A program made the translations under genes and the position numbers. From the IMG/VR virus record IMGVR_UViG_3300036783_000169, positions 1 through 38,850 of that record: a stretch of DNA of 38,850 bases; one strand, given 5' to 3'. Positions 2,132 to 29,622 of the stretch are shown here, in pieces; position 1 is the stretch's first letter, and each line of letters opens with the position of its first letter. The notes beneath the pieces were generated by a model. The model searched no databases. It was not told where the DNA came from and worked only from the letters and a program-made list of their open reading frames with translations. This stretch comes from a virus. Taxonomy: Duplodnaviria > Caudoviricetes.

Positions 2132-2226
2132 GCGCCGTAGTTCGTGTGGGCTACTGTGAGCCGTGGCCATCTTGGGCGCGCGCCGTAACTCGTCTGGGCT
2201 TTTCAGCCGTCACCTGCTTGGGCGCG
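2132..2226 (-). ncRNA. Two TIGR-like guide units (AGCAGGTG/GACGAGTT; AGATGGCC/CACGAACT)
   Basis: Four GCCCA-N8-ACGGC motifs with closing stems and a GAAA-capped loop hairpin; overlaps the stop codon of 2203-3006. Confidence 0.85.
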
Positions 2227-3006
2227 TTGCCGGATGGTGAGCTGTATTTCGGTGGCTCCGGGGAGCTGGCGTCGTAGTTTTTCGAGTTCGATGCCGAGGG
2301 CGACGCCGGGGCCGGCGGCGAACTGGTCGATGAGTTGGAGGGTGAGGACGACGGTGACTTGGGTGATGTCGCCGGGTGGGGTGACGGGTCCGTGGTCGTA
2401 GTCGTATGCCTCTGTGGTGGTGGGCGTGCCGCCGTTGTGACCGTGGGCTTCTGGTGCCGTCTCCGCATTGGGCGGCTGGCCTTGGAGTTCCTGGCCGAGC
2501 GTGTCCATCAGTTCCTGGCCGAGTGCGACCATCTCGCGCCATGCCTGGTCGCGTCCGGGTGAGTTGGCGGGGAGTTGCGTTGGGTGCTCTGCGGCGGTCA
2601 GCTCGTTGTCGCCGGGGCAGGTTTCTTGGTCGCGTCGGCGTTGTTCGCGGTCGCGTGCTGCTTGCTGTCTCGGGTTGGGCTGGGTGGGGGCTGGTTCTGT
2701 TACATCTGTAACACCGTTGCCGGTGTTGCGGATGTCTCGCATGACGGTGGGGGGGGAGCTTCCGGTGGCCTGGGCGATTTTGCGGTAGGTCATGCCGGTG
2801 GTGTGGAGGAGCTGGTGGATTTCGCGTCGGCGCGGGGCGGAGAAGCGGTCGGGGCCGAATTCTGCTTGTGCCCATCCGTCGACGCTGCGGTAGCCGAGGA
2901 CTTTCCAATCCTGTTCTTCGACGGCTTGGGCGTAGAGGACCGCGGTTTGCTGGAGTCCGAGGCGGATGTGTTCGGCGCGTTCGGCGGCGAGCTGCTTGGT
3001 GGTCAT
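2203..3006 (-). CDS. HTH DNA-binding protein, 267 aa
   Basis: GMTYRKIAQATGSSPPTVMRDIR is a typical helix-turn-helix; promoter at 3042-3058. Confidence 0.8.
   Translation of the reverse strand: MTTKQLAAERAEHIRLGLQQTAVLYAQAVEEQDWKVLGYRSVDGWAQAEFGPDRFSAPRRREIHQLLHTTGMTYRKIAQATGSSPPTVMRDIRNTGNGVTDVTEPAPTQPNPRQQAARDREQRRRDQETCPGDNELTAAEHPTQLPANSPGRDQAWREMVALGQELMDTLGQELQGQPPNAETAPEAHGHNGGTPTTTEAYDYDHGPVTPPGDITQVTVVLTLQLIDQFAAGPGVALGIELEKLRRQLPGATEIQLTIRQRAQAGDG
2428..2476 (-). ncRNA. TIGR-like unit inside the HTH gene (ATGCGGAG/CGGTCACA)
   Basis: GCCGCC-CA-N8-ACGGC-accagaa-GCCCA-N8-ACGGCGGC with a perfect 6-bp closing stem. Confidence 0.8.
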
Positions 3007-5722: not shown

Positions 5723-5766
5723 GGCCGTTATACTCTTGGGCCACCTGGCCGTTGAAAGGGTGAGCC
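5723..5766 (-). ncRNA. Stand-alone TIGR-like unit (CCCTTTCA/AGAGTATA)
   Basis: GGCTCA-N8-ACGGCCA-gg-TGGCCCA-N8-ACGGCC; TATATT -10 at 5781-5786. Confidence 0.8.
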
Positions 5767-6343: not shown

Positions 6344-6694
6344 ATGCTGCTGATCAGGATGCCGGACAGCGGGGAACGGCGGCAGCGGGAACGGCGGCGC
6401 AGGCAGCGGGCGCTGCTGTACCTCGTGCCGTGCCCGATCATCCTCACGGCGGTGTTCATCGCCCCGAACTGGTGGCTGAGGACGGCCGCGATCGTGGTTG
6501 AGGCGTGGTGGATATGGGCGTGCCGCACTGACCCGCGTATCCGGTTACGGTTCGCGGGCGGTCTCGCGGTCGAGCTGGCCGATCAGCTCAGCGGTGCACA
6601 TGCAGCAGAGCCGCCAGTGGCGGCGTGCGCCGTCGACGGTGAAAGAGTGACCGCAGACCATGGGCTGACTGCACATCGCGCACATTTCCACTGA
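6344..6694 (+). CDS. Membrane protein (3' part overlaps an antisense ORF)
   Basis: Arg patch followed by two hydrophobic segments. Confidence 0.45.
   Translation: MLLIRMPDSGERRQRERRRRQRALLYLVPCPIILTAVFIAPNWWLRTAAIVVEAWWIWACRTDPRIRLRFAGGLAVELADQLSGAHAAEPPVAACAVDGERVTADHGLTAHRAHFH
6545..6691 (-). CDS. 48-aa CxxC...CxxC protein
   Basis: GGGAGG RBS and TATGAT upstream; CAMC...CCMC. Confidence 0.5.
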   Translation of the reverse strand: MEMCAMCSQPMVCGHSFTVDGARRHWRLCCMCTAELIGQLDRETAREP

Positions 6695-6712
6695 CTCACC
6701 CTCCCACTTTCC

Positions 6713-6741
6713 GTATCATAGGGTATCATAGGGGGTATGAC
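6713..6741. promoter_or_regulatory. Bidirectional -10 (TATCAT/TATGAT); leaderless promoter of the tas operon
   Basis: GTATCATAG twice; 6723-6741 is 18/19 identical to 13862-13880. Confidence 0.65.
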
Positions 6742-7174
6742 TCGGCACTCAATATCCACCTATGTGCGTGAGCAGTTCTTCGCCGGCGTCCACGACCCCG
6801 AAGAAATCGCCCGGCGCTACCTCACCGACGCGCTCGAAGCGGACGACCCCGACGCGTGGCTCCTCCCCGCCATCCGCCACAGTGTCGGCGCGAGCTTCTC
6901 GTCCATCCAGGCCGCTGTCCGCGGGACCCAACCAAGTAACGGCACCGCCCAAGACGCAAGCGGTCCCGCGCGGCAGCGCCATAACGAGGGGTACGTGTAC
7001 AACCCAGACACCCGCGAATGGATTCCGCTCGGGAAGGCCACCATCAGCGACTTCACCGCCGCGATCCGGTGGCACGAGAAGATGATCGAAGGGCACCACG
7101 CCACGATTGACGAGTACCGGACGTACATCAAGAAGATACGGGAAGCGGGTGTCACATGCCTTGACGAGACGTGA
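6737..7174 (+). CDS. Hypothetical protein, first gene of the tas operon
   Basis: Leaderless ATG; carries an in-frame guide unit. Confidence 0.8.
   Translation: MTRHSISTYVREQFFAGVHDPEEIARRYLTDALEADDPDAWLLPAIRHSVGASFSSIQAAVRGTQPSNGTAQDASGPARQRHNEGYVYNPDTREWIPLGKATISDFTAAIRWHEKMIEGHHATIDEYRTYIKKIREAGVTCLDET
6920..6970 (+). ncRNA. TIGR-like unit inside CDS (ACCAAGTA/AGACGCAA)
   Basis: Perfect 9-bp stem CGCGGGACC/GGTCCCGCG around two CCA-N8-RCGG motifs. Confidence 0.8.
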
Positions 7175-7532
7175 GCGGGGCCCACCGCACTAACGGCCCC
7201 CTGCGGGCTCACAAATGCTACGGCCCCGCCCACGGACGGTACGGACCCATGGTGGTCTCAAGCCACACACGGCGGGGCCCATTGCGGATACGGCGCAAGC
7301 CCACGGTTCAAACGGCCCAGAAGCAACACGGCGCAAGCCCAGGGTTCCAACGGCCGCCCAGACCACCAGCGGCTTCACGGAAGCTCACACCAGTAACGGC
7401 GGTACGGCCCAATGGCGCAACGGCACACAGATGCCCATGGATGTCACGGCCACTCCCGCCCAGGCTACAGACGGCCAGGCCGCCCAGTGTTGCTGCGGCC
7501 AACTGGCTCATACCGGGTGCGGCGGGCTGGCC
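7175..7532 (+). ncRNA. TIGR-like array 1: 7 dual-spacer units plus 1 single spacer
   Basis: 15 consecutive YCA-N8-RCGG motifs with unique spacers; loop hairpins (e.g. GGC-GCAA-GCC) alternate with edge stems. Confidence 0.92.
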
Positions 7533-7555
7533 AGACGGAAAGGAAACGAAGGACA

Positions 7556-8479
7556 ATGACAGTACAAGCGGACGCTCATGGTGCCAGCGGCGAACACGCC
7601 CAGCGATCAAGCGGCGTCCCCGCTGACAACCCCTACCCGTGGGGCAATCTGGCGACGTTCCGTTCGGCTGCGGAAGGGCTGACGGACGCGATCAAAGCAC
7701 GGTGCAGCGTCGAGAACCGGGTCAAGCGGGGTGGCGGCGCGGTCGACGTGGTCCAGGCCAATGCGATGGTGCAGGCCGCGCGGCAGCTCGAGGAAACCTA
7801 CCGCGACCTGCTCATGGCCGCGTACCAGAGCCAGGTCCCCGCCGAGGTGCAGGACTGGGCGGCGGGCATCCCCGGGCTCGCGACCGGTGAGCTGTTCCCC
7901 CGGATGCTCGGGATGATCGGCCACCCCCGCATCGCTATCCCGTGGGTCTGGGAAGAGGGAGCGGACGCACCGGTCCCCGCCGGGCCCCCGTACATCAGGG
8001 ACCGGCACCAGCAGCTGTGGCAATACTGCGGGGCAGGTGACCCCCGGACCCGCCCGTCGGTGCTCGGGCACCGGCCCGACCGGGACGAACTCCTCAAGGC
8101 GGGGAAACTCAAATCGGTCCGCCCCCTGCTATTCACGTTCAGTGCATACCTTGTCCGGATGCACACCCGGTCCGACGCGGTCGCCGAGTCTGCGTATTAC
8201 AAGGTGTATGAGGACGCGCGGGCGGAAGCGGCGGGGCATACCGGCAAGTGCATACCCGGTTCGTGGCCGTCGACGTGCGCGGGTACCCACCGCAGGCACG
8301 AGTACCTGTGCAAGAACACGAAGCGGCCCCCGATGAACTCGAACGGGTGCGGGACGGTCCTGCACCCCGAGTGGGGTGAACCGGGGTCACCGTGGCGACC
8401 CGGACATCTGAATATGCATGCTCACAGGGTTCTTCACAAAGAGTTTCTGCATGACCTGTGGCGGATCAGCGCACTGTGA
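7556..8479 (+). CDS. tasA: TasA-like Nop/IS110-C-domain RNA-binding protein without nuclease domain, 307 aa
   Basis: GAAGGA RBS. N-terminal coiled coil, then WAAGIPGL, LWQYCG, YYKVYEDAR and GHLNMHAHRVLHKEFLHDLW. No RuvC/DEDD N-terminus. Flanked by dual-spacer arrays. Confidence 0.8.
   Translation: MTVQADAHGASGEHAQRSSGVPADNPYPWGNLATFRSAAEGLTDAIKARCSVENRVKRGGGAVDVVQANAMVQAARQLEETYRDLLMAAYQSQVPAEVQDWAAGIPGLATGELFPRMLGMIGHPRIAIPWVWEEGADAPVPAGPPYIRDRHQQLWQYCGAGDPRTRPSVLGHRPDRDELLKAGKLKSVRPLLFTFSAYLVRMHTRSDAVAESAYYKVYEDARAEAAGHTGKCIPGSWPSTCAGTHRRHEYLCKNTKRPPMNSNGCGTVLHPEWGEPGSPWRPGHLNMHAHRVLHKEFLHDLWRISAL
7570..7619 (+). ncRNA. TIGR-like unit within the first ~21 codons of tas (TGGTGCCA/GCGATCAA)
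   Basis: GGACGCT-CA-N8-GCGGC...GCCCA-N8-GCGGCGTCC. Confidence 0.8.
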
Positions 8480-8484
8480 GGACC

Positions 8485-8727
8485 GGGCCGGGCCGCCCAG
8501 GGCACCTACGGCGGCGACGCTCATGCACGATACGGTGGCCTGGCCCACGATCAAGACGGCGCAAGCTCAGTGACGCAACGGCCAGCCGCCCAGAGTTGTC
8601 ACGGCACTCAGTGGCTCAAGCACGATACGGCGGTACGGCTCAGGAGGGTTACGGAAACCAAGGGAATCACGGCCACGCCGCCCAACACGCTGACGGCAGG
8701 ATCACTGCTCACTGTCAAGACGGCGGC
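8485..8727 (+). ncRNA. TIGR-like array 2: 5 units
   Basis: 10 motifs; first unit closed by a 13-bp stem with G.U pairs. Confidence 0.92.
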
Positions 8728-8754
8728 TGCCCGCATAGGAAAGGACAAGGACGC

Positions 8755-9471
8755 ATGACCCACTTCACGGTTCTGGTGTGCTGCAAGGACCCGGGTGACC
8801 TGGACGGGGCGCTGGCCCCGTTCGACGAGAACGACGAGAACGCGGAGAACCCCCGGTGGGACTGGTGGGTGATCGGCGGCCGGTGGGCCGGCAGTCTCCT
8901 CATCAAGCCGGGGCATGAGGCGGAGGTCATCATGCCCGGGGCGGCGACCTGGTCGACCCCGGAAATCCGCGACGGGTACTGCGACGGGGGGCCGAAACGG
9001 GCCATCGACGTGGACCGGATGCGGGACGACGCCGCCCGCAACGCGCGTATCCGGTTCGGGGAGTACGCGAAGCTCACCGAGGGTACCCCCGACCCGCTGC
9101 CGTGGAAGACGTTCGCGGATAACATCAGCGAGGGAAACGGGTACACGGTCCAGCAGGCCCGCGACGAGTACAACGCGCAGCCGAGGATCGCGGTCCTCAA
9201 GGGCACGACGTTCGACCGCCTGTTCAGCGACCCGGCCGAGGAGTTCGCCTGCACGGAGCAGGTGTACGCCGAACGGGTCCGTGCGCAGGCCGTCCCCGGG
9301 TACGCGCTGCTGACCACCGACGGGAGGTGGCTGGCACCCGGTGAGATGGGCTGGTGGGGCATGTCAACCGACGAGCAGCCCGACCGGATCGGATACTGGG
9401 AGGTCGCCAACGCCTACATCGACCAGCTGTCAGACGACACGTGGCTGATCATGACCGATTGTCATATTTAG
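8755..9471 (+). CDS. Conserved phage hypothetical protein, 238 aa
   Basis: GGAAAGGA RBS; MTHFTVLV, WDWWVIGGRW, GEMGWWG and C-terminal DCHI motifs of a common phage family. Confidence 0.85.
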   Translation: MTHFTVLVCCKDPGDLDGALAPFDENDENAENPRWDWWVIGGRWAGSLLIKPGHEAEVIMPGAATWSTPEIRDGYCDGGPKRAIDVDRMRDDAARNARIRFGEYAKLTEGTPDPLPWKTFADNISEGNGYTVQQARDEYNAQPRIAVLKGTTFDRLFSDPAEEFACTEQVYAERVRAQAVPGYALLTTDGRWLAPGEMGWWGMSTDEQPDRIGYWEVANAYIDQLSDDTWLIMTDCHI

Positions 9472-9476
9472 ACCGG

Positions 9477-9614
9477 ACGGTGGCCTGGCCCACGCTGGAA
9501 ACGGCCAGCCGCCCATGCAGCTAACGGCACGTACCTGCTCAAGCTGGTGACGGCGGCTGGCCCAAGATGGCCACGGCGGCACACGACCGCTCACACGAGC
9601 TACGGCCCAGCCGC
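9477..9614 (+). ncRNA. TIGR-like array 3: 1 single spacer plus 2 units
   Basis: 5 motifs; 11-bp stem GGCCAGCCGCC/GGCGGCTGGCC. Confidence 0.9.
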
Positions 9615-9638
9615 ATACGAAAGGAGTACGATACTCAC

Positions 9639-9863
9639 ATGGCTGAGGAGCGGAAACCACTCGAACGGGTCACGGTCAACCTTGTCCCGCGCGCGTCGAA
9701 AGCCCTCCAGCTCGCCGTCGACATCACCGGCGACTCCAAGACCGACACCATCAACCGGGCCATCCAGATGTACGCATACTTTGAGCACACCGTACGGGAA
9801 GGCGGCACCATCCTGGTCCGCGACCAGGACGGGGGTGAGCTGTCCGTCGTCCGCTGGTACTGA
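9639..9863 (+). CDS. Ribbon-helix-helix (CopG-like) regulator
   Basis: AAAGGAG RBS; RVTVNL...SKTDTINRAI. Confidence 0.8.
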   Translation: MAEERKPLERVTVNLVPRASKALQLAVDITGDSKTDTINRAIQMYAYFEHTVREGGTILVRDQDGGELSVVRWY

Positions 9864-9870
9864 CCTGGCG

Positions 9871-10059
9871 CGGCCCATGCTTGTTACGGCCCTGGCGGCT
9901 CAGAGAGGTGACGGCCGGCCCACGCCGTTAACGGCCCATGGTGGCCCAAGCTTGTAACGGCCGGCCCAGGCGAACTACGGCACATGCTGCTCATTGTCGA
10001 TACGGCCAGGCCGCTCATAGCAGTGACGGCAACCGCCCATGGTAGCAGCGGCGGCCTGG
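9871..10059 (+). ncRNA. TIGR-like array 4: 4 units
   Basis: 8 motifs with edge and loop stems. Confidence 0.92.
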
Positions 10060-10063
10060 ACGG

Positions 10064-10098
10064 ACGGGAGCCCGGCGCATCACGCGCCGGGCTCCCGT
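10064..10098. terminator. Terminator hairpin ending the tas operon
   Basis: 15-bp perfect stem between convergent transcription units. Confidence 0.8.
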
Positions 10099-10110
10099 TG
10101 CGGTCCTGGG

Positions 10111-13186: not shown

Positions 13187-13470
13187 TTCGGCAGCACCAT
13201 CCCTCCGCACTTGTAGCAAAATCCTTTGATGACGCGGGCGCGGGGGTGGTCGCACGCCGTCTGTGCTCTGGGCGTTCCCGCCGTTGTTCCCGTGGGCGTG
13301 TGACCGGGTGCCGTTTCCTCTGTGGGCATTGCTGCCGTAGCGGCGTTGAGCACATGGTCGATCAGGTCAGCCACCCACCGGGCCCGCGACTGGCCCCCGC
13401 GCACATCATCGAGTTTCGAGGCTGTCTCTGCGGAAACACGGACGCTGATCACGTTGTCTCGCCGGGGCAT
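13183..13470 (-). CDS. RHH regulator with C-terminal Cys/His motif
   Basis: VISVRVS...SRARWVADLI; CDHP...CYKC; the linker consists of two guide units. Confidence 0.75.
   Translation of the reverse strand: MPRRDNVISVRVSAETASKLDDVRGGQSRARWVADLIDHVLNAATAAMPTEETAPGHTPTGTTAGTPRAQTACDHPRARVIKGFCYKCGGMVLPK
13253..13353 (-). ncRNA. Two TIGR-like units inside the RHH gene (ACGCCGCT/CAGAGGAA; CGGGAACA/GAGCACAG)
   Basis: Four GCYCA-N8-ACGGC motifs; GCAA and GGAA tetraloops; closing stems. Confidence 0.85.
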
Positions 13471-13539
13471 GCCATCAACCTACAGGGGGACGCCCCGGCG
13501 CGGTAGTGCGCCGGGACGTCCAGATCGTAGTCATGACGG

Positions 13540-13689
13540 TCACTTCTTCCCGTGCGGCGTGCTCTCCGGGTTCCGCTGCTTGCGTGCCGGATTGTTCCTG
13601 GTCCGGCGGTGCTCAGCGGCGTACCGGGCGCACTTGACGCGGTGGCGTCCGTGCTTACGGTTTTTCTTTCCGCCCTTGTGTGCGGGCAT
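13540..13689 (-). CDS. 49-aa highly basic protein
   Basis: MPAHKGGKKNRKHGRHRVKC...; GGGAGG upstream. Confidence 0.6.
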   Translation of the reverse strand: MPAHKGGKKNRKHGRHRVKCARYAAEHRRTRNNPARKQRNPESTPHGKK

Positions 13690-13772
13690 CTGGGGGTCTC
13701 ACCCCCCTCCCTGCTGGCAGTTACCTGTCCGGCAGGGTGCGCTCGCTGCGCATGGACCCTCCTCTCGAAAGG

Positions 13773-13828
13773 CCCAGGGCCGTCCCAGCTATGGGCTCAG
13801 ATAAGCCGTGGGGGTGATGGGCCCTGGG
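13773..13828 (-). ncRNA. Stand-alone TIGR-like unit (TCACCCCC/TAGCTGGG)
   Basis: 9-bp stem CCCAGGGCC/GGCCCTGGG; TATGAT upstream at 13864-13869. Confidence 0.85.
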
Positions 13829-13875: not shown

Positions 13876-14622
13876 ATGACCAAGCGACTTCACCAAGTAG
13901 TAGTCATCGAGCGAGGTGTCCAAAGCGATACTGAGCGTGTCCTAGAGACTTATAAGCGCTTGTTTGCGCTGGGCGGCGACCAGAACCCGATGAAGGGGCT
14001 GGTCAGGACCTACCAGCCGCTCCGTGAGGGCGGCGTCCAGCATCCTCCGCAGAGCCAGAAGGTGCAGGTGAAGGCGTCGGATCTCATCCCCGAGATCAAG
14101 CAGGCGCTCGCCACCTGGTTCGGCGTGAAGTACACGCGGGAGTTCTGGAACACGAAGGCGACCGCAGACCTGGTGGTCGACGGCGAGACGATCCTGACCG
14201 GCGTGCCGACGACCTTTTTCCTGTTCCTCGAGGCGCAGGTCGCGGCGATCCGGTCGGGTCTGATCGCCCGGTTCCCGACGCTGGACCCTGCCGAGGACTG
14301 GCATCACGACCCGGCGCGTGGCATCTGGGTGACCGAACCGCGGGTCACCGAGTCGACCGCGAAGGTGCCCCAGGTGCAGCTGCTCGCCCCGGCGACGAAG
14401 GAGCACCCGGCGCAGGTCCGCCCGTATGACACGGACGAGAAGGTCGGCGAGTGGACCAGCACGAAGCTGTCGGGTCAGCTTCCCGCCGACGACGTGAGCG
14501 CCATGTTCGACCGGTGCTCTAAGCTGCTCGTCGCGATCAAGCAGGCGAGGGAACAGGCGAACAGCATCGAAGTAGAGGACAAGGATGCTTCGCCGGTCCT
14601 TGACTGGATATTCGGAGCATGA
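13876..14622 (+). CDS. Conserved actinobacterial/phage hypothetical protein, 248 aa
   Basis: Leaderless after TATCAT; motifs RTYQP, FLFLE, ATKEHPAQV, AREQAN (family recalled as DUF7873-like, unverified). Confidence 0.85.
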   Translation: MTKRLHQVVVIERGVQSDTERVLETYKRLFALGGDQNPMKGLVRTYQPLREGGVQHPPQSQKVQVKASDLIPEIKQALATWFGVKYTREFWNTKATADLVVDGETILTGVPTTFFLFLEAQVAAIRSGLIARFPTLDPAEDWHHDPARGIWVTEPRVTESTAKVPQVQLLAPATKEHPAQVRPYDTDEKVGEWTSTKLSGQLPADDVSAMFDRCSKLLVAIKQAREQANSIEVEDKDASPVLDWIFGA

Positions 14623-14675
14623 TGATGCCCAGTGCTGGAACGGCGCAAGCCCAAAAATCCAACGGCATCACATGA
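14618..14675 (+). ncRNA. Single TIGR-like unit (GTGCTGGA/AAAATCCA)
   Basis: TGATGCC/GGCATCA stem, GGC-GCAA-GCC loop, flanked by CATGA direct repeats. Confidence 0.85.
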
Positions 14676-15060: not shown

Positions 15061-15252
15061 GCGGCTCATTGTTCGAACGGCCCGTAGTGGCTCATGATCG
15101 TGGCGGCCGCTTATAACTGAACATGTCCGGGGTGGCCCAATCCCAGTACGCGGCCCGTAGGTGGCTCACGTTCGGCGCGGCCACCCCGGCTCCGACCGGG
15201 GCTCACCGCAGTGGCGGCCGTCAATCGGCTCAAACGTGAGACGGCCCTGGTC
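15061..15252 (+). ncRNA. TIGR-like array 5: 3 units
   Basis: Closing stems of 6, 11 and 10 bp; first half of unit 2 is irregular. Confidence 0.85.
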
Positions 15253-15498: not shown

Positions 15499-15602
15499 GG
15501 TACGGCTTGTTTCCAGAGGTTGCCGGTTCGAATCCGGCCCGCGCCTCCAGCATGGCGCGGTAGCTCAACGGCAGAGTGCTGGTTATCAGCTTCGACCGTG
15601 CC
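15499..15602 (+). ncRNA. Circularly permuted tRNA-like RNA (YrlA-like)
   Basis: Order is T arm (GCCGG-TTCGAAT-CCGGC), acceptor stem CCGCGCC/GGCGCGG closed by a TCCAGCAT loop, then D arm. CCAG/CTGG replaces the anticodon arm; outer stem GGTACGG/CCGTGCC. Confidence 0.7.
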
Positions 15603-15630
15603 ACCGTGACGCCGGGAAGATGCGGACAGC

Positions 15631-15703
15631 CAAGTCGTAGGCTAACGGAAAAGCCGACGGTCTCTTAAACCGGAGAGTGCGGGTTCGAATCCCGCCGACA
15701 CAG
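15631..15703 (+). tRNA. tRNA-Lys(CTT)-like element with broken acceptor stem
   Basis: D arm GGCT/AGCC, loop CTCTTAA, T arm GCGGG-TTCGAAT-CCCGC; only 4 acceptor pairs and no CCA. Confidence 0.6.
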
Positions 15704-15709
15704 GTAAAT

Positions 15710-17704: not shown

Positions 17705-18522
17705 GAAATAGCAGTACGGCCCGGCTCCGGACCCTGGCCCCGCCGCCCTGGGGAGGGAAGGCTCGTGATGGAGCCGCTAGTCGACGGGTGTCCTGGCCCG
17801 CACGAGTCGTGGCAGGAGCTGGCCGAGCATTCGCTGGAGCATGACAACCTGCCGGACCCTGCGCCGCCAACAGCGACACCGGTAGTACGGTACAAGACAT
17901 GACGATGACGACTCAGCAGCAGACACGCGCGGTCCGGCGGCGGATGACCAGCGTCCCGAAGCAGGTCAGCGAAGAAGCAGCCGGGGTCGGGTTCGGCACC
18001 TTCATCGCTACATGCATCACCGGGGTGTTCGTCGCGTTCGGGTGGATCTTCGGGTCCCTGTGGTTCGCGGTCCGGTACTGCGCGGTCGCGGTCCGGTACG
18101 GGTACCGGCAGGGTGCGCACGTCCCCCGCGCCCCCCAGCACCCCGCTCCAGGGCGCGGGGGACCCGACGGTCTCAACAAGCAGTAACGCGGCGCGGTAAA
18201 TCTCCACGCCATCCCACTCATCCGGCTCCTCGCGTGACGGCACGGTCGCGGCCAGGGCACCCAGCAGCGCCCTAGTCATCTTGTCCGTGAGCAGGATCTC
18301 CACCGTCCGCCCGGAAAAGGCCGTCCGAATCGTCACCTCCCCGGCGGTAGCCTCCACCAGCCAGACGAAGGGCTCGGTGTAGACGGGCAGCAGCCTGAAT
18401 GCCGGTTCCATGCTCACGACTCTCCTCAGATCGGGTAGCGGCACTGGCCAGTCCAGGACCGCACGGCTGATAATCGCGTCGCCACGGACGTCGGTGACGA
18501 CGAATCGGTCGTCGGCTTTCAC
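17677..18522 (-). CDS. Hypothetical protein; N-terminal ~110 aa plausible, remainder antisense to 17768-18186
   Basis: GTGA coupling to the VRR-NUC gene. Confidence 0.4.
   Translation of the reverse strand: MKADDRFVVTDVRGDAIISRAVLDWPVPLPDLRRVVSMEPAFRLLPVYTEPFVWLVEATAGEVTIRTAFSGRTVEILLTDKMTRALLGALAATVPSREEPDEWDGVEIYRAALLLVETVGSPAPWSGVLGGAGDVRTLPVPVPDRDRAVPDREPQGPEDPPERDEHPGDACSDEGAEPDPGCFFADLLRDAGHPPPDRACLLLSRHRHVLYRTTGVAVGGAGSGRLSCSSECSASSCHDSCGPGHPSTSGSITSLPSPGRRGQGPEPGRTAISYPMLRSGS
17768..17902 (+). CDS. 44-aa hypothetical protein
   Basis: GGAGGGAAGG RBS; ATGA overlap with 17899. Confidence 0.4.
   Translation: MEPLVDGCPGPHESWQELAEHSLEHDNLPDPAPPTATPVVRYKT
17899..18186 (+). CDS. Small membrane protein
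   Basis: Central hydrophobic segment. Confidence 0.65.
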   Translation: MTMTTQQQTRAVRRRMTSVPKQVSEEAAGVGFGTFIATCITGVFVAFGWIFGSLWFAVRYCAVAVRYGYRQGAHVPRAPQHPAPGRGGPDGLNKQ

Positions 18523-18833
18523 GCCGCCGCCTCACCCAGGCCAGCGATACGGTCGAGTTCGCTGGCTATGAGGCCGCTCGTCAGCTCCCGTGGGGTCCAG
18601 ATCCCGGCGTCACCCCCGCTATCCCTGATCTCCCATATCCAGCGGCGCTGGTCTATACGAACTAGGCCGCCCGGAACCTTGAGTTCTCGGAACAGCGCGC
18701 CACCTGGGCCGACGATGACCAGATCAGGAAATCCGCTACCCCGGCACTTGCGCCCGTCGCGGCAGTGGTGCCAACGGAGACAGCGCTCTTGAGCAAGCTG
18801 CGTCACGTGCGCTAGGAAGGTGACCTCGTTCAT
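18519..18833 (-). CDS. VRR-NUC (PD-(D/E)XK) nuclease
   Basis: GFPDLVIV...FRELK...DQRRW. Confidence 0.85.
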   Translation of the reverse strand: MNEVTFLAHVTQLAQERCLRWHHCRDGRKCRGSGFPDLVIVGPGGALFRELKVPGGLVRIDQRRWIWEIRDSGGDAGIWTPRELTSGLIASELDRIAGLGEAAA

Positions 18834-19585
18834 CTGCGCTCCTGTGCGATAAGGCTGGCTAGTTCCTCATCGAGGTCGAGTTCGGTTTTCTCGGCGTTTG
18901 CCTCCGCGCGTCGCTGGGTCCACCGGATGAGGAACTTACGCATGAGGGCATCAAAGTCGACGCGGACGGCCGCGAGGGTAGTCATGACGGTCCCGACCGT
19001 GTGCCGATTGACCCCGGTGGCGGTGGTGATCGCGGTGACGCTCAGCCCCTTAGCCTGGAGCTCGCGGATCTGCAGGACTTTCTCGGCGGTCAGCTTCGTT
19101 CTCCGCTGGTTCCGGGCCTGCACGACCGGCGGGGCCCAGACGCAGTTACCGGGTTCGTAGTTACCGTTGTTGTCGAGGCGCTCTAGGGTCGTACCTGGCG
19201 GCTTCTCGCCCATGTCGGCCAGGAACGCGGGGTAATCGTCTAGCCACCGGTCGCAGACTTTGATCCCGCGTCCTCCCCAGGTCTCGTACCGGGGATGATC
19301 TGGGCGGCACCGCCGACGCATGTTCTGCCAGCTGGTGTAGGTTGCTGTCCTGCTTGCGCGGGACGCAAGGCCGTGCTTGGTCGACCGGGCTATGGTTGTC
19401 TCACGGCGCAGGCAGCCGCAGCTCCGCGTTCCACCTGATCGGAGCGATCCGCTGGGTACGACGGTCTGCGTGCCGCAGTCGCAGACACAAGCCCAGTAGG
19501 CTGCTCCGGTAAGTGACCGGTCACGTTCAACAGCAACCAGGCGGCCGAACCGCTGACCTACCAGATTCGATGTCGGACGAGGCAT
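18830..19585 (-). CDS. HNH homing-endonuclease-like protein with C-terminal HTH
   Basis: GQRFGRL, CVCDCG, SCGC, GGRGIKVCDRW, LERLDNNGNYEPGNCVWA; leaderless after TATATT. Confidence 0.88.
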   Translation of the reverse strand: MPRPTSNLVGQRFGRLVAVERDRSLTGAAYWACVCDCGTQTVVPSGSLRSGGTRSCGCLRRETTIARSTKHGLASRASRTATYTSWQNMRRRCRPDHPRYETWGGRGIKVCDRWLDDYPAFLADMGEKPPGTTLERLDNNGNYEPGNCVWAPPVVQARNQRRTKLTAEKVLQIRELQAKGLSVTAITTATGVNRHTVGTVMTTLAAVRVDFDALMRKFLIRWTQRRAEANAEKTELDLDEELASLIAQERR

Positions 19586-19621
19586 GAACCTCAATATAGG
19601 TGAGGGGAGGTGGTTTGGTCA

Positions 19622-21227: not shown

Positions 21228-22241
21228 GTGTATGAGACCAGGGCCGCCATGACCAGCGCGTCGATCAACGACTTGCCGGACAGCGCGTTCGCGTACATCG
21301 AGAGCGGCGGGAAGAAGGACTCGTCGGGGAAGACGATCCCGCGGTCGCTGCGGCATTTCCCGGTCCACGACGAGGCCCACGCGAGGAACGCCCTGGCGCG
21401 GGCACCGCAGTCCCCGTTCGGTAAGGCGGCGATGCCGAAGATTCTCGCGGCGGCCCGGAAGTTCGGGATCAAGGTCTCCGGGCAGGACCGGGCGTTCGCG
21501 GGGATGGAACCGGACACGTCGGGGTGGCCGGAGCGCCGGTTCACGAAGTTCCCGCTGGAGATGCGCACCGAAGGGCAGGACGGGCCCGCTCACATCTGGG
21601 GGTACGCGGCGTGTTTCGACCGGCTGTCGAAGCGGCTCGGCGGGTTCGTGGAGCAGGTCAACCGGTCCGCGTTCAACGAGAGCAAGCAGGACGGGTGGCC
21701 CGACGTCGTCTGCCGCTACAACCACAAGGACGACTACCTGCTGGGGACGACGTACGCGCGGACGCTGGAGCTCGGGATCGACCCGACCGGGCTGATGTAT
21801 GACGTGCGCCCACCCCAGTCGAGGTCGGACATCCTGGAGTACGTGCAGCGCGGAGACATCCGCCACTCCTCGTTCGCGTTCCGGACGTTCCCCGGCGGCG
21901 ACGAATGGGGCGTGTCGGAACACAACTATCCGATGCGCACGCTGCTGTCGGTCGAGCTCGTCGACGTGGCCCCGGTTCTCGACCCCGCGTACCCGGACGC
22001 GACGGCGGGGGCGCGTGCGATGGACGGTGCCATCCGGTCGCTGTCGATGTGGGTGCAGGCCGAGCCCGATGAGGTCCGTGACAAGCTCGCCGAGAACCGT
22101 GCCATGGACTTCTTCAGGAGGACCGACAACATCGGGCCCCGCCAGAAGCAGAAGGTTGAGAAGAAGAACACGCTTACCGGTGCTCTGGCGCTGCTCGACC
22201 TGCTCGACAACTCCCAGGACCCGTATGCAGACCAGGGATAA
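21228..22241 (+). CDS. Prohead protease, HK97 family, with extra N-terminal domain
   Basis: GYAACF, GGFVEQV, YNH, SSFAF, LVDVAPVLDPAY. Confidence 0.92.
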   Translation: MYETRAAMTSASINDLPDSAFAYIESGGKKDSSGKTIPRSLRHFPVHDEAHARNALARAPQSPFGKAAMPKILAAARKFGIKVSGQDRAFAGMEPDTSGWPERRFTKFPLEMRTEGQDGPAHIWGYAACFDRLSKRLGGFVEQVNRSAFNESKQDGWPDVVCRYNHKDDYLLGTTYARTLELGIDPTGLMYDVRPPQSRSDILEYVQRGDIRHSSFAFRTFPGGDEWGVSEHNYPMRTLLSVELVDVAPVLDPAYPDATAGARAMDGAIRSLSMWVQAEPDEVRDKLAENRAMDFFRRTDNIGPRQKQKVEKKNTLTGALALLDLLDNSQDPYADQG

Positions 22242-22279
22242 GCCGTAATTACCCTGGATACCGTTGCTCGCTTGGGCCC
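22240..22279 (-). ncRNA. Stand-alone antisense TIGR-like unit (AGCGAGCA/GGGTAATT)
   Basis: GGCCCA-N8-ACGG-tat-CCA-N8-ACGGCT; TATGAT at 22298-22303. Confidence 0.75.
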
Positions 22280-24873: not shown

Positions 24874-25089
24874 ATGGCCAGCGCTGACCCCGCCAGGCTG
24901 GCCGCTTTCGTGGCGGGCCTGCCCGACGGTCACCGTCACGCCGGGTTCTTCTGGGCGGTCATGACCGCTGAGGCGAACCACCTGGACCCGGCTGATGTGG
25001 CGATGATCGCGGATGCGGGGGTCACGAACGGCCTCGACGAGGACTACGTGCACCGGACCGTGACCGAGGCTCGGAAGAAGACACGGTGA
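24874..25089 (+). CDS. Hypothetical protein
   Basis: GTGA overlap with the GT gene. Confidence 0.55.
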   Translation: MASADPARLAAFVAGLPDGHRHAGFFWAVMTAEANHLDPADVAMIADAGVTNGLDEDYVHRTVTEARKKTR

Positions 25090-26096
25090 AGCTTTTCTCC
25101 GGTCATGATGCCGGCGGGTGCGGCTGGTACCGGATGATCCTCCCGCACCGGCAGCTCGCGGAGCACGGCTGGGACGTCACGTGGGCGAACGCGAGCCTTG
25201 AGACCGGGGCGGGGTTCACCAGCGCGGCCACCCGCGGGAATGATGTTATCGCGGCGCAGCGGGTAGACAAACCCGGGTCGGCGCATGTGTGGCGCGACTG
25301 CCGCACCGCCACGTCCCGGTTGGTCCTCGAGCAGGACGACAACGTGTTCTCCATCGGGATGCACAACTGGTCGGCCTACGAGATCTATTCGAGAGAACGG
25401 GTCCGTGACATGGTGATGCACGCCATGGAGGTCGCGGACATGGTGACGACGACGACCCCGGCCCTCGCGGAGGTTCTCAGCGAGTTCAACCAGAACGTGA
25501 GGGTGCTGCCGAACTGCATCCCAGGCTGGGTGTGCGGCCTGTCACCCCGGGAGCATGACCGGCCGCGGGTCGGGTGGATGGGCGGCGCGTCCCACGGTCT
25601 CGACGTCGGGGTGGTCGCGGAGCCGGTGCGACGGTTCCTGAAACGGCACCCTGCCTGGCAGCTGTCCCTGATCGGGACCGATTACCGCCCGACGTTCGAG
25701 CTGCCTGAGCGCCGCGCCGTGTTCACCAAATGGGTACAGGTCAATGATGACGCTGACGGTTACTACCGGCTGCCCGATTTTGATGTGGGGCTGGCCCCGC
25801 TGACCCCGGACGTGTTCAACCAGTCCAAGTCCCCGTTGAAGGCCCTCGAGTACGGGGCGCTGGGAATCCCCGTCATCGCGTCGGACTGGCCACCCTACCG
25901 GGATTACGTCCGTCACGGTGAGACAGGGTTTCTCGTCAAGCGTGACCATGAGTGGCTGCATTACATGAGTCTCCTCGCGAACGATGAGGCGCTGCGGGAG
26001 AAGATGGGCGCTGCGGCGCGGGAGCAGGCCCGGCAGCACACGATCGAGGGAAACTGGCAGGCGTGGGACGAGGCGTACCGTTCCCTGTTTCAGTAG
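25086..26096 (+). CDS. GT-B glycosyltransferase (GT4-like)
   Basis: GCGWYR, EQDDN, KSPLKALEYGALGIPVIASD. Confidence 0.92.
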   Translation: MKLFSGHDAGGCGWYRMILPHRQLAEHGWDVTWANASLETGAGFTSAATRGNDVIAAQRVDKPGSAHVWRDCRTATSRLVLEQDDNVFSIGMHNWSAYEIYSRERVRDMVMHAMEVADMVTTTTPALAEVLSEFNQNVRVLPNCIPGWVCGLSPREHDRPRVGWMGGASHGLDVGVVAEPVRRFLKRHPAWQLSLIGTDYRPTFELPERRAVFTKWVQVNDDADGYYRLPDFDVGLAPLTPDVFNQSKSPLKALEYGALGIPVIASDWPPYRDYVRHGETGFLVKRDHEWLHYMSLLANDEALREKMGAAAREQARQHTIEGNWQAWDEAYRSLFQ

Positions 26097-26105
26097 CATG
26101 GGGTC

Positions 26106-26795
26106 GTGCACCTGGTCGTGGTCGTGCCGAGCCGGGGGCGTCCTGCCAGCGCCCGCCGTCTCGCTGGTGCTTTCCGGGACACCGCGGATTTTGACAGGAC
26201 GGACCTGCTGTTCGCCGTGGACGATGACGACCCGGAGCTGGCGGCGTACCAGGAGCTGGCCGATGAGGACCCGTGGGCCGGGCTGACGGTCCTCCCACAC
26301 CCCCGCAGGATCGGGCCCATCCTGAACGCGGTGGCTGTCAGCCTGGCCCCTTTCTGTAATTACCTGGGTTTCATGGGCGATGATCACCTGCCCAGCACGG
26401 ACGGGTGGGACCGGGCGCTGACCGGTGAGCTGGACGGGACGCTCGGGGTGGCGTACGGGAATGACCTGCACCAGGGGGCGAGGCTCCCGACCGCGATGGT
26501 GGTGTCGTCGGTGCTGATCCGGAAGCTGGGGTACTTCTGCCCGCCTGGCCTGACCCACCTGTACCTGGATAATTTCTGGGCGCTGCTCGGGTCGGTGACC
26601 CGGCTGGCGTACCGGGATGACGTGATCATCGAGCACCTGCACGTGGCGGCGGGGAAGGCCCCGATGGACGCCGGGTACGAGTTCAGCCTGGACCCGGGGC
26701 TGGACATGCAGGACAGGGTCGCGTACGACACGTTCCTTCGCGGGCGGTGGGAGGATGACCGGCGGATGATCGCAGAGATGATGACCGGTGCGTAA
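26106..26795 (+). CDS. GT-A glycosyltransferase (GT2-like)
   Basis: VVPSRGR, AVDDDD, MGDDH, IIEHLH. Confidence 0.88.
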   Translation: MHLVVVVPSRGRPASARRLAGAFRDTADFDRTDLLFAVDDDDPELAAYQELADEDPWAGLTVLPHPRRIGPILNAVAVSLAPFCNYLGFMGDDHLPSTDGWDRALTGELDGTLGVAYGNDLHQGARLPTAMVVSSVLIRKLGYFCPPGLTHLYLDNFWALLGSVTRLAYRDDVIIEHLHVAAGKAPMDAGYEFSLDPGLDMQDRVAYDTFLRGRWEDDRRMIAEMMTGA

Positions 26796-27390
26796 GCAGC
26801 TCCGCCCGTTTTACGACCAGCGGGACCTGGACCGGATCTACGCGACGTCGTATGACCACACGCGGTGGTCCGATCACGTGCAGCGGGTCGCCTATACCGC
26901 GCAAATTTTGCACCGCATGGCACCGTCCAGTGTCGCTGACCTGTCGTGCGGTGACGCGGCGATCGTGAACCAGGCCGGGCTCGCATGCCCCGTGCACTGC
27001 GGTGACCTGACCGGGGACTACGAGTTCAAGGGGCCGATCGAGGAGACAGTCGGCCTGATCCCGTATGTGGACGTTTTCGTATGTTCCGAGACGCTGGAGC
27101 ACCTGCGGGACCCGGACCTGGTCCTGAAGCTGATCCGGGTGAAGGCGGACCGGCTGCTGCTGTCCACCCCGGTCGGCGAGTGTGACGACACGAACCGCGA
27201 GCATCTCTGGGGCTGGGACACCGTTGACATGCGGGCTATGCTCACCCAGGCCGGGTGGACGGGTCAGGTTGACCTGCTCTGCCCGCCCCCCGCCTACTAC
27301 GTTTTCCAAGTCTGGCAGTGCGCTTTATGCCCAGCGCGCTGGTCACTGGCAGCGCCGGGTTCATCGGCCGGCACTTCACCCGCCGCCTGA
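26788..27390 (+). CDS. SAM-dependent methyltransferase
   Basis: VADLSCGD, CSETLEHLRDP. Confidence 0.8.
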   Translation: MRKQLRPFYDQRDLDRIYATSYDHTRWSDHVQRVAYTAQILHRMAPSSVADLSCGDAAIVNQAGLACPVHCGDLTGDYEFKGPIEETVGLIPYVDVFVCSETLEHLRDPDLVLKLIRVKADRLLLSTPVGECDDTNREHLWGWDTVDMRAMLTQAGWTGQVDLLCPPPAYYVFQVWQCALCPARWSLAAPGSSAGTSPAA

Positions 27391-28202
27391 TCCGGAACGG
27401 CTGGGACGTGTCTTGTGTTGATGTCAAGACAGGCCGGGACGCGCGGGAGTTCTTCACGTTCCCCCCTTCGGGCTACGACCTGGTGGTGCATGCCGCGGCT
27501 GTGGTCGGCGGCCGGGAGACCATCGACAACAATCCGCTCGCCCAGGCGGTCAACCTGGAACTTGACGCCGGGCTGTTCACCTGGGCGCGGCGGGCCAGGC
27601 CGGGGCGGATCGTGTACCTGTCCAGCTCGTCGGTGTACCCGGTCGCGTTGCAGGGCAGCGAAACCAAGTGCCGGCTCCACGAGCAGGACGTGAACTGGGC
27701 ATCGACGCAGGGACCCGACGCGCTGTACGGGTGGACCAAGCTGACCGGCGAGTACCTGGCCCGGCTCGCCCTCGCCGACGGGCAGGCCGTCACCATCGTC
27801 CGCCCGTTCTCCGGTTACGGACCCGACCAGGACGACACGTACCCGTTCCCCGCGTTCATCGACCGGGCGCTCGCCCGGGCTGACCCGTTCGCGATCTGGG
27901 GCAGCGGCGAGCAGGTCCGGGATTTCATTCACGTGGACGACATCGTGACGGCCACGCTGATGATGGTGGAACAGGAGATCAGCGGCCCCCTGAACCTCGC
28001 ATCGGGGCAGCCCGTGTCGATGCGCGAGCTCGCGGGGATGGTCTGCGAGCAGGCCGGGTATGAGCCCCGGTTCGAGTGCGTCCCGACCGCTCCGTCCGGT
28101 GTTGAGTGGCGGGTCGCGGACGTGCTGAAGGCCAGCCAGGTGTGGGTTCCGCGGGTTCGGCTGGCGCAGGGTATCCGCGAGGCGCTGAAATACCGTAAGT
28201 GA
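27327..28202 (+). CDS. NAD-dependent epimerase/dehydratase
   Basis: TGSAGFIG, SSSSVY, YGWTK, RDFIHVDD. Confidence 0.95.
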   Translation: MPSALVTGSAGFIGRHFTRRLIRNGWDVSCVDVKTGRDAREFFTFPPSGYDLVVHAAAVVGGRETIDNNPLAQAVNLELDAGLFTWARRARPGRIVYLSSSSVYPVALQGSETKCRLHEQDVNWASTQGPDALYGWTKLTGEYLARLALADGQAVTIVRPFSGYGPDQDDTYPFPAFIDRALARADPFAIWGSGEQVRDFIHVDDIVTATLMMVEQEISGPLNLASGQPVSMRELAGMVCEQAGYEPRFECVPTAPSGVEWRVADVLKASQVWVPRVRLAQGIREALKYRK

Positions 28203-28203
28203 C

Positions 28204-28866
28204 ATGAAAGCGTTCATCATCTTCCGGGACAGGGTGTCGTACGGGCGCAGGTGCGCGGACGCGATGCGCCGGGCGGGTCTCGATCCCGTGATTGTGGATC
28301 ACGGGTCGACGTGGCCTGCGGCGCTGGCGTGGCTAACCGGGCTGGAGCAGTGGGGCATCGAAGTGCTCTACAGAGGCGGGGGGCATCCCAGGCATCTGTG
28401 GGAGTGGACGCCGTTCCTTGAGTCGCGTGGCAGCGACCGGTACGTGGTGACCGACCCGGACGTGATCCCGTCACCGAAGTGCCCGCTGGACTGGCCGCAG
28501 CGGCTCTCCGGGCTGCTGGATGAGTACCCGGGCAGCGCGAAAGCCGGGCTGGGCCTCCGGATTGACAACCTGCCGGAGCATTACTCCCGCCGCCAGCAGG
28601 TCATCGAATGGGAAAAGCATTTCTGGGATGACGAGCTGGAACCGGGCGTGTTCCGCGCACCGCTGGACACGACCCTTGCCCTATACCGGGAACGGTCACG
28701 GTTCGAGCTGGACGGGCTGCGGACCGGGAACCCGTACGTGGCGGATCACCTCGCCTGGCATGAAGATTTCAGCGCACTACCGGCTGAGACCGCGTACTAC
28801 TATCAGAATGCAGAACGCGGAATCTCACATTGGGCGGTGCGTGGTGTCAGTGCCTGGGGCGACTAG
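28204..28866 (+). CDS. GT-A glycosyltransferase
   Basis: IVDHGST; VVTDPD (DxD). Confidence 0.8.
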   Translation: MKAFIIFRDRVSYGRRCADAMRRAGLDPVIVDHGSTWPAALAWLTGLEQWGIEVLYRGGGHPRHLWEWTPFLESRGSDRYVVTDPDVIPSPKCPLDWPQRLSGLLDEYPGSAKAGLGLRIDNLPEHYSRRQQVIEWEKHFWDDELEPGVFRAPLDTTLALYRERSRFELDGLRTGNPYVADHLAWHEDFSALPAETAYYYQNAERGISHWAVRGVSAWGD

Positions 28867-28870
28867 GAAA

Positions 28871-29395
28871 ATGATTCTCCCGGCGATCGCTTCGGCGGTC
28901 ACGGCGAATGAATCACAAGCGCTGGCTGACCTGGCCGCGGGTAAGACGGTCCTCGAGCTGGGTGCGTGGTTCGGGTACTCCACGGTGGTGCTGGCGTCGG
29001 TTGCCGAGCAGGTCACCAGCGTCGACTGGCATATGGGCGACGAGCACGCCGGGATCGTCGACACCTACGAGATCTTCACCTATAACCTGCAGCGGTACGG
29101 GGTGCAGGACCGGGTCGAGATAGTGCGGGAACGGTTCGAGGAGGCCCTGCCGCGGATGGCCGCGGAGGGACGCCGGTTCGACGGGTGCTTCCTCGACGCG
29201 CACCATTCCGAGGAATCCGTCACCCGGGACATCGGCCTCGCCGTGCCCCTTATCCGGCCAGGCGGGTTCTTCGCCTTCCACGATTACGGCAGGGGCCCGC
29301 ACAACGGCCATCCGGGGTTCGGGGTGACGGAGGCTGCTGACCGGTTCGGTGTCACGGGCCGCACCGGGTTCCTCGGCTGGGGGTTCGTCCCGTGA
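28871..29395 (+). CDS. Class I methyltransferase (Methyltransf_24-like)
   Basis: VLELGAWFGYST, FLDAHH, GGFFAFHDY. Confidence 0.88.
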   Translation: MILPAIASAVTANESQALADLAAGKTVLELGAWFGYSTVVLASVAEQVTSVDWHMGDEHAGIVDTYEIFTYNLQRYGVQDRVEIVRERFEEALPRMAAEGRRFDGCFLDAHHSEESVTRDIGLAVPLIRPGGFFAFHDYGRGPHNGHPGFGVTEAADRFGVTGRTGFLGWGFVP

Positions 29396-29622
29396 AGTAC
29401 TACACCTGCGACGGGTGCTCGGTGACGCTGACCGTCGAGCAGCGGAACAGGGTCACGGTCAGGAACACGTTCAATAAGCCGGTGACGCTGCATTACTGCG
29501 CGGCGTGCGCCGAGGCGCTCTGGCCTGAGCTGAAATCAGTGTTCGGGTGGACGAAGCAGAGGTTACGTACACGATGCTCCGCGACGGCGAGACTGACCGT
29601 AAGGTGCTCGCCGGGGCGGTGA
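29392..29622 (+). CDS. Zn-ribbon protein
   Basis: CDGC...CAAC. Confidence 0.55.
   Translation: MKYYTCDGCSVTLTVEQRNRVTVRNTFNKPVTLHYCAACAEALWPELKSVFGWTKQRLRTRCSATARLTVRCSPGR

Follow-up and report, generated by a model that had tools for sequence, protein, structure and literature searches.

A stem-loop TIGR-TasA operon in a phage genome fragment, and lone guides beside silently recoded genes that they nearly match

The tasA operon and its guide units

The window analysed here is a 38,850-nt stretch of DNA from a virus (Duplodnaviria; Caudoviricetes), positions 1 to 38,850 of the IMG/VR record IMGVR_UViG_3300036783_000169. It carries a four-gene operon whose second gene, tasA, encodes a nuclease-free Nop-domain protein, and whose gaps are filled with short stem-loop units that each hold a pair of spacers (TIGR guide RNAs, or tigRNAs). 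Judged from the modelled fold of the protein and its boxes, this is a stem-loop TIGR-TasA system and belongs to a published kind. Five further guides stand alone beside genes that encode the same peptides with silent differences, and on balance we think it likely that the system silences genes of competing close relatives while its own, recoded targets are presumably immune. The operon comprises the following features:

6691–6719 (+): predicted sigma-70-type promoter-like site, 9/12 match; 3 such sites versus 0.9 in shuffles
6737–7174 (+): ORF1, 145 aa, helical family of unknown function (profile search), directly upstream of tasA
6928–6962 (+): dual tigRNA unit inside ORF1 (motif and stems)
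7182–7521 (+): array 1, 7 dual units and 1 single (7460), several sharing stems (motif and stem pairing)
7556–8479 (+): tasA, 307 aa; disordered N-terminus, coiled coil, Nop domain with a His/Cys-rich insertion, no nuclease or C-terminal processing loop
7576–7613 (+): dual unit in the disordered 5' end of tasA (motif and stems)
8497–8722 (+): array 2, 5 dual units, of which 8640–8671 spells a tRNA T-arm (motif and stem pairing)
8755–9471 (+): ORF3, 238 aa, uncharacterised phage family phrog_10079
9490–9604 (+): array 3, 1 single (9490) and 2 dual units, 9562–9604 being a near-duplicate of unit 2136–2175
9639–9863 (+): ORF4, 74 aa, RHH-like by eye only
9875–10050 (+): array 4, 4 dual units (motif and stem pairing)
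10064–10098 (+): terminator-like 15-bp hairpin facing a convergent gene (-36 kcal/mol, z -6.6)

An earlier note, made by a model from the letters of this DNA, had described a four-gene operon (ORFs 6737–7174, 7556–8479, 8755–9471 and 9639–9863 in the present analysis) with 18 dual units plus 2 singles filling every intergenic gap. Counts against 1,000 dinucleotide shuffles per intergenic gap bear this out. The four gaps, 1,026 nt in total, contain 16, 10, 5 and 8 copies of the motif YCA-N8-R-CGG (39 altogether), while the shuffle means are 0.40, 0.26, 0.10 and 0.12 (total 0.88) and the maxima 3, 3, 2 and 2. The excess is confined to one strand: within 7170–10100 there are 42 motifs on + and 0 on -, and other spacings on + are scarce (N7 0, N9 2, N10 0). 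One motif, at 7366, overlaps another; the remaining 38 pair through their outer stems into 7+5+2+4 = 18 dual units and the singles 7460 and 9490, the same count as before. The unit grammar proposed in the note needs adjustment: the motif is real, but its elements are better taken as box C (YCA), 9 nt and box D (CG). Likewise its inventory is right for the gaps but lacks the intragenic units 6928–6962 and 7576–7613 as well as 15 that lie beyond the operon, on one strand or the other, which together bring the total to 35. As to its terminator, a 15-bp hairpin does lie at 10064–10098, but it has a weak U-tail and is missing from the output of a terminator scan.

The stem of each unit begins with a pair formed by the Y of box C and the G of box D and runs outward from there; its two spacers are joined by a GNNN tetraloop or a small hairpin, and adjacent units often have a stem arm in common. 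Since the linkers range from 1 to 14 nt and vary in sequence, these arrays lack the alternating conserved edge and loop repeats with 4-nt gaps of the dual-repeat TIGR class; the variable palindromic stems around each spacer pair are those of the stem-loop class. CTT within 20 nt upstream of box C, corresponding to the CUU at the stem base that is frequent but not universal in that class, was found for 3/35 units. When 11 units were folded, 7/11 gave z < -2.5 and the other four were weaker. The pair CCA-N9-CG is among the eight motif pairs used by TIGRFinder.

The TasA protein matched nothing in Pfam, its best PDB sequence match was TasR (E 0.059), and the NCBIfam model TIGR_Tas NF052498.1, which was built for the endonuclease type and has a cut-off of 100, gave E 3.7e-9 and 36.9 bits. 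An AlphaFold2 model was built (63 sequences, pLDDT 90.9). For this model Foldseek placed TasH and TasR at ranks 1–10, and VIA-align superposed TasA 31–307 on TasR 110–295 (9mty_B; Z 15.8, rmsd 2.2, 182 residues), followed by TasH (Z 14.9), IS110 recombinase (11.5) and others at 8.0 or below. The model aligns solely to the part of TasR after its RuvC domain, and residues 1–30 form no domain. Because the residues before 31 leave no room for a nuclease, TasA has no RuvC or HNH domain; nor does it carry the N-terminal DEDD RuvC domain of IS110 transposons. Its last helix spans 282–305 and the protein ends at 307, leaving no C-terminal Y/H processing loop, as in the stem-loop class. The earlier reading of this gene as a Nop/IS110-C-type protein without RuvC, and of the system as TIGR-Tas of the TasA kind, thus holds for fold, boxes and adjacent paired-spacer arrays. 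There are 68 TasA homologs, and the same boxes stand beside relatives of 42–87% identity and likewise at 22–31%. The insertion before the last helix (window 8290–8370, TasA ~245–272) is ~45 positions longer than in TaTasR; in 63 relatives H248, C252 and C265 are invariant and H270 nearly so. It possibly binds zinc and may set the 17-bp target layout described below.

In the available text of PMC12045711 and of the preprints bioRxiv 10.64898/2026.09.09.750476 and 10.64898/2026.08.11.744272, the stem-loop systems PlTasA, BlTasA and MbTasA share with ours a Nop-only protein with disordered N-terminus and short C-terminus; box C CCA and box D CG around 9 nt, with outer stems, loop hairpins and shared stems; sub-arrays flanking tas on both sides; and intragenic units. 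As far as their text was available, the first of these papers defines TIGR-Tas (9+9 targets, a seed, tolerated gaps of 1–2 bp, stem-loop TasA sub-arrays), the second demonstrates that MbTasA represses and also documents intragenic tigRNAs, loop hairpins and overlapping stems, and the third presents a PlTasA structure in which the heteroduplexes are 9 bp long and reports how sensitive SpTasH is to mismatches: its activity is lost with most single and with adjacent double mismatches. By analogy, the TasA complex of the window likely acts as an RNA-guided roadblock. TaTasR (9MTY) and SpTasH (9W04, 21KL) have the coiled-coil and Nop fold in common with TasA; SpTasH also uses 8-nt spacers and TasR tolerates 1–2-bp gaps, but unlike these dual-repeat systems ours is without RuvC/HNH, alternating edge and loop repeats and Y/H processing loop. 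The IS110 bridge recombinases (ISCro4, IS621) share the Nop-like C-terminal fold; in contrast to them the window system has no DEDD domain or element ends, and many variable guides.

Lone guides and the genes beside them

The 15 units outside the operon are distributed as follows:

2136–2471 (-): three units (2136–2175, 2184–2221, 2433–2471), located inside ORF 2203–3006 and at its end; local target not found
5726–5763 (-): solitary unit; local target not found
13258–13820 (-): three units (13258–13295, 13312–13349, 13781–13820); 13781–13820 resembles 13699–13716 only with a 2-nt gap and 2 mismatches
14629–14664 (+): solitary unit; predicted target 14596–14612, end of the DUF7873 gene, 3 silent mismatches
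15066–15243 (+): three units (15066–15105, 15137–15179, 15203–15243); local target not found
22244–22275 (-): solitary unit; predicted target 21915–21931, prohead protease gene, 6 silent mismatches
30185–30222 (-): solitary unit; predicted target 29998–30014, head-tail connector gene, 3 silent mismatches
30825–30862 (-): solitary unit; predicted target 30731–30747, methyltransferase-like gene, 3 silent mismatches; absent in a relative
37971–38008 (-): solitary unit inside ORF 37720–38412; predicted target 37849–37865 in the same ORF, 1 silent mismatch

The target layout tested was spacer A positions 1–8, one free base, and the reverse complement of spacer B positions 1–8 (8+1+8), with shuffled spacer pairs as the null. 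With the 1-nt gap, four units match genes of the window with 1–3 mismatches that are all synonymous (null 0.42), while gaps of 0 and 2 gave no all-silent match to an own gene with 3 or fewer mismatches. Allowing up to 6 mismatches, 5/35 units match a gene 33–360 bp away (null 0.1), and these are five of the eight solitary units outside the operon. Two more silent matches, 4–6 kb away, fall inside the null of 1.3 and 0.9. When relatives were pooled with the window, such matches were found for 10/242 strong-stem units, and for 8/61 isolated units versus 0; a relaxed pooled set gave 12/346 candidates in 31 TIGR-bearing sequences, all with gap 1 and 11 in frame 0 (null 0.75). A followed by the reverse complement of B at this gap is, by sequence only, the arrangement in which the two spacers would pair with opposite strands of one DNA site.

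The guides also carry a codon rhythm. Spacer positions 3 and 6 are rich in G/C, both in the window (110/140 versus 199/420) and in relatives (528/748 versus 1053/2244), a symmetric rhythm that fits the 8+1+8 layout only. Position 9 is a purine, but a purine was built into the search pattern. The central base at the window sites mostly matches neither spacer's ninth base, which is why we take it to be unread. A central base shared by the two spacers would suit one site in the relative L096 and the mycobacteriophage units described below, but not the window. Several mismatches are two-base Ser swaps or first-position Leu/Arg swaps of a kind seldom produced by drift, and rare codons occur on both sides (in the own gene at 14596, 21915 and 37849, in the guide at 30731). 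None of the units has a perfect site on its own contig, the best being 15/16, and self-targets that are perfect or nearly so under 9+9 or other gaps are at chance level. In L096, 318 bp separate the lone unit 11036 (-) from a terminase-region site whose differences include Leu and Ser codon swaps; the frame of that region is broken near the unit.

These layouts suggest how the system might work. As in the family, array transcripts would be cut into single stem-loop RNAs, each loaded by a TasA dimer; spacers A and B would pair with opposite DNA strands, and the complex so bound would block transcription. The first 8 nt of each spacer would be used and the central base pair would go unread, so that codon-framed sites put wobble bases at spacer positions 3 and 6 and at the centre, away from a seed at 4–5. 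Silent changes in combination would then render the phage's own allele immune. A recombinant that received a guide without its immune allele would silence itself, which would keep the two together, and the linked pair would spread as a block, like intronless homing without the cut. Targets farther afield would be served by the guides in the operon arrays, namely a tRNA gene, the tasA of kin and possibly an IrrE/ImmA peptidase gene.

A comparable linkage is that of the free-standing T4 seg endonucleases (intronless homing, marker exclusion), described in the available text of PMC2988022 as selfish determinants lying hundreds of bases from their site in a neighbouring gene and acting on a relative's allele in co-infection, as the window determinant would. 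Unlike seg, the determinant here is a 40-nt guide read in trans by a nuclease-free protein, and any gene conversion is hypothetical. Intronless homing proper involves an endonuclease that cuts the recipient allele; none is seen here, since TasA has no nuclease, ORF1 has no invariant residue and ORF3 is unlinked. VIPR (bioRxiv 10.64898/2026.04.26.720920) is likewise a phage-borne RNA-guided silencing system with codon-framed targets, but differs in protein fold and guide grammar and skips every third base, and the text available of that preprint reports no self-contig matches.

Alleles of relatives and the alternative readings

Possible further traces of kin targeting lie in tasA itself:

8402–8418 (+): tasA stretch encoding GHLNMH; relative L037 addresses it with its first guide downstream of tasA, to which the window has 3 silent mismatches
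8433–8449 (+): tasA stretch encoding HKEFL; relative L038 addresses it with its first guide downstream of tasA, to which the window has 4 mismatches, all at third positions

Both L037 and L038 have, as the first unit downstream of tasA, one that matches the end of their own tasA with two silent mismatches. The L038 guide matches L037 tasA at 15/16, its own at 14/16 and that of the window at 12/16. In the window, A/T-ending codons take up 7/11 positions in these two sites versus 40/252 elsewhere in tasA (p 0.0007). Unit 8497 is near the tasA-directed unit of L037 in sequence and place, with two non-silent differences in spacer B.

A second comparison concerns unit 30825–30862. A relative (~87% identical) in run X2 has 36 nt in place of window 30781–30893 (113 nt, holding the unit). 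Its target site shows A at both 30739 and 30745, namely one of the three guide-specific letters and a central A equal to spacer B position 9, as read from the 10 of its 16 differences that were listed; this evidence is one contig of depth 4.8, the sole unit-free relative seen at that site. Among distinct protease-capsid gaps of kin, 71/73 are without a unit, and the two with one represent one lineage with different spacers. A related phage also has lone units with different spacers at two places that carry one in the window, in matching orientations, namely the protease-capsid gap (L082, L160–L162) and after the DUF7873 gene (L082, L083, L162). Judged from these sequences, the recoding of tasA, the run X2 relative and the gap counts in kin favour kin targeting with a linked immune allele.

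Several results weigh against this reading. Most operon guides have no assigned target, and non-synonymous near matches between them and own genes are no more frequent than chance would give. For the codon-bias test on tasA, the sites were picked after looking. A search of 158 kin loci (2.0 Mb) with the window guides gave no 16/16 target, and near matches there are at chance; at the five sites, the residues encoded by kin alleles are mostly different, and these alleles resemble the guides no better than chance; and the exact IMG/VR matches of two guides all lie outside the expected genes (0/6 and 0/17 inside). For 24 guides of the mycobacteriophages described below, which we take to be cluster A1, a search of 11 A1 loci gave no site with 0–1 mismatch, and gap 1 (5 versus 2.5 expected) was not favoured over gap 2 (6 versus 1.5). 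A codon-pairing test reached a pooled z of 1.9 (p 0.01 among 12 tests) and showed nothing for the window alone. Finally, unit 37971–38008 differs from its own site by one base, which may not confer immunity. In wider searches, 222 units showed no enrichment in 1.0 Mb of TIGR-bearing contigs and the 158 kin loci under 16 layouts, the largest excess being at gap 0 (12 versus 6.1 units at 0–1 mismatch), and a wobble-tolerant search of kin coding sequences stayed at chance level. The sampled kin have at most 83% protein identity at the target genes and may be too distant for perfect sites, which is an excuse and not evidence.

Of the competing explanations, the one that survives best holds that silencing of host genes or unrelated mobile elements is the main job, at least for the 18 operon guides, with kin targeting a side branch; we regard this as rather unlikely. 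The operon guides have no nearby silent match in the window, and some point elsewhere. Guide 8640 spells a tRNA T-arm in the 8+1+8 layout: among the viral exact matches listed, 106/121 have C at the free centre and 62/121 lie in called tRNAs, chiefly Asp and Gly, and among the cellular ones listed 97/121 are in called tRNA genes. The guides 9562–9604 (+) and 2136–2175 (-) have a common spacer A and a one-base difference in spacer B that is silent in the frame reading HELGHL, an HExxH peptidase motif; of 85 scanned frames, taken from 93 exact matches, 21 are IrrE/ImmA peptidases (Peptidase_M78). On the other side, 0.11 occurrences of the tRNA pattern are expected by chance among 277 units, many HELGHL matches are the reverse strand of other genes, and the linked targets of operon guides may lie outside the window because the contig is a fragment. 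From the matches alone, the tRNA and IrrE/ImmA assignments are leads. In a relative, the unit L049 9781 is a second T-arm-like guide, at 15/16 to a T-arm-like site in L174. The predicted site of unit 2184–2221 (-) reads DE(F/L)HLL, which we take to resemble a DExH helicase motif. Guide 9920 matches the methylase motif of the kin L039, L080 and L082 at 15/16 but with gap 0 (1 seen versus 1.2 expected), a weak lead, and a methylase scan of viral contigs found nothing. Near matches of 7576 to ORF1, 8590 to ORF4, 7230 to a methylase and 8545 to VRR-NUC were set aside as non-synonymous and, as a class, not above chance; none of the exact IMG/VR matches of guide 8545 lies in a VRR-NUC gene. Stop-codon avoidance by frame was not informative.

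We think it unlikely that the system is one of self-regulation, in which positions 3 and 6 are read loosely, lone guides bind and tune or delay their own neighbours, for the most part late or head genes, and the mismatches are drift that the system tolerates. Most mismatches do lie at spacer positions 3 and 6, unit 37971–38008 matches its own gene at 15/16, the guides encode the peptide of their own phage and not that of the sampled kin, and wobble bases are skipped by VIPR according to the text available on it. Yet some sites have 5–6 mismatches that include positions 1, 2, 4 and 5 (unit 22244–22275, G002, L096), most single and adjacent double mismatches inactivate SpTasH in the available account, a guide acting in trans needs no linkage to its target, and tasA is silently recoded at the sites of kin guides.

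Still less probable is that the units are relics of local acquisition, copied from adjacent DNA and self-targeting at birth, followed by mutual escape and no ongoing kin targeting. It would explain adjacency directly, and unit 8497 looks like a decayed orthologue of the tasA-directed unit of L037. Escape by guide mutation would not, however, remain synonymous; in unit 30825–30862 rare synonymous codons replace the common codons of the own gene, and the L038 guide fits a relative better than itself. That the motifs are degenerate repeats or protein-binding sites and not guide RNAs is scarcely credible, given their strand- and spacing-specific enrichment, the outer stems, the Tas fold, the identical boxes in relatives and the peptide-preserving matches.

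A stronger form of the kin-targeting reading is that the branch with ORF1 and TasA runs an allele-level contest of self and non-self, in which 40-nt cassettes beside silently recoded genes are nuclease-free homing elements that read 17-bp codon-framed sites, hit the tasA of rivals and leave recoding scars. We put this forward tentatively, as a possibility.

Partner genes, phage setting and implications

The earlier note had suggested that the system acts with its co-transcribed genes, and conserved linkage was found for ORF1 only. By iterated profile, the ORF1 family lies directly upstream of tasA on the same strand in 41/59 tas loci. Of the 18 loci without it, ten have less than 400 nt upstream and eight have enough DNA (L013, L014, L016, L019, L023, L026, L058, L059), so that the linkage amounts to 41/49 loci with enough upstream DNA, several of them redundant. 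A profile search found the family in none of the 158 structural-gene loci. It has no invariant residue, its sole match is phrog_4604 (unknown function), and it comprises 1,358 clusters at E 1e-10. A predicted complex of a TasA dimer with ORF1 scored 0.00, which counts neither way. Altogether, ORF1 is probably a second component of the system. Homologs of ORF3 (in 6 loci, three near distant tas) and of ORF4 (in 2) lie mostly away from tasA, and these two genes look like passengers. The ORF3 model is confident (pLDDT 96) with conserved D/E/H/W residues; Foldseek found no match for it in the PDB and only uncharacterised phage proteins elsewhere. With no such fold match, no characterised relatives and no linkage to tasA, ORF3 was rejected as a partner nuclease. 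The proposed RHH identity of ORF4 gained nothing from database searches, which gave no match.

The same gene pair occurs in cultured phages. Fromanvirus phages of M. smegmatis (L028–L036) carry, in order, an ORF1 homolog, stem-loop CCA/CG units, a TasA homolog and a Cas4 exonuclease gene; examples are MK524497.1 (L596; Francis47 gp70, gp69) and MH651180.1 (L597; Maroc7 gp71, gp70). The TasA homolog is annotated there as 'transposase', and PHROG 4285 labels the family likewise. In all, 292 records match part of the 1.7-kb mycobacteriophage stretch and 79 cover 80% of it. Spacers differ among near-identical mycobacteriophages, and in 11/24 of their units, unlike in the window, the two spacers have ninth bases that can form a Watson-Crick pair.

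The window itself is the whole of its virus record and a fragment of a phage genome. It has ~66% G+C and genes for terminase, portal, prohead protease and an HK97-type capsid protein; no tail or replication module was recognised among its genes. The three runs holding parts of it are soil metagenomes, one of which may be where it came from. The sequence clusters of ORF3 suggest Actinomycetota on the host side. A search of GTDB bacterial genomes gave no relative. A tRNA-Lys(CTT) lies at 15630–15704, with upstream tRNA-like fragments (window 15500–15704) that ARAGORN did not call. Glycosyltransferase, epimerase and methyltransferase genes cluster at 25086–31560, directly after the capsid gene. 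Between terminase and portal stand a free-standing HNH endonuclease gene (18830–19594, -) and a VRR-NUC-like nuclease gene (18519–18833, -). The intergenic stretch 1640–1900 holds repeated GTTAGCCGCGCTAAC-like palindromes, possibly an origin or operator cluster.

Both main TIGR papers, in the text available, leave natural targets and spacer origin as questions, and bioRxiv 10.64898/2026.09.09.750476 states that natural targets cannot yet be determined. In the accessible description, TIGRFinder was applied to loci around tas, with up to 10 kb of flank in the context analysis, so that lone guides 12–30 kb away would probably escape it. In a literature search that covered subscription papers thinly, no report was found of linked silent targets or of a conserved gene upstream of tas, although the tables of Xu et al. 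may list the clade; six contig names of relatives were absent from four PMC12045711 supplements, where the spelling may differ. Beyond the published system, the analysis adds position-fixed pairs and their 8+1+8 layout, along with recoding scars in tasA, the conservation of ORF1 and a cultured model. Five guide-target pairs fixed by position and the genetic code are a lead to the natural targets of the family, and the 8+1+8 layout of the natural sites changes how targets should be sought and how this clade should be programmed. A conserved partner gene has been found in a family described as single-protein, and the presence of the same gene pair in laboratory-grown phages of M. smegmatis makes experiments in the native context possible.

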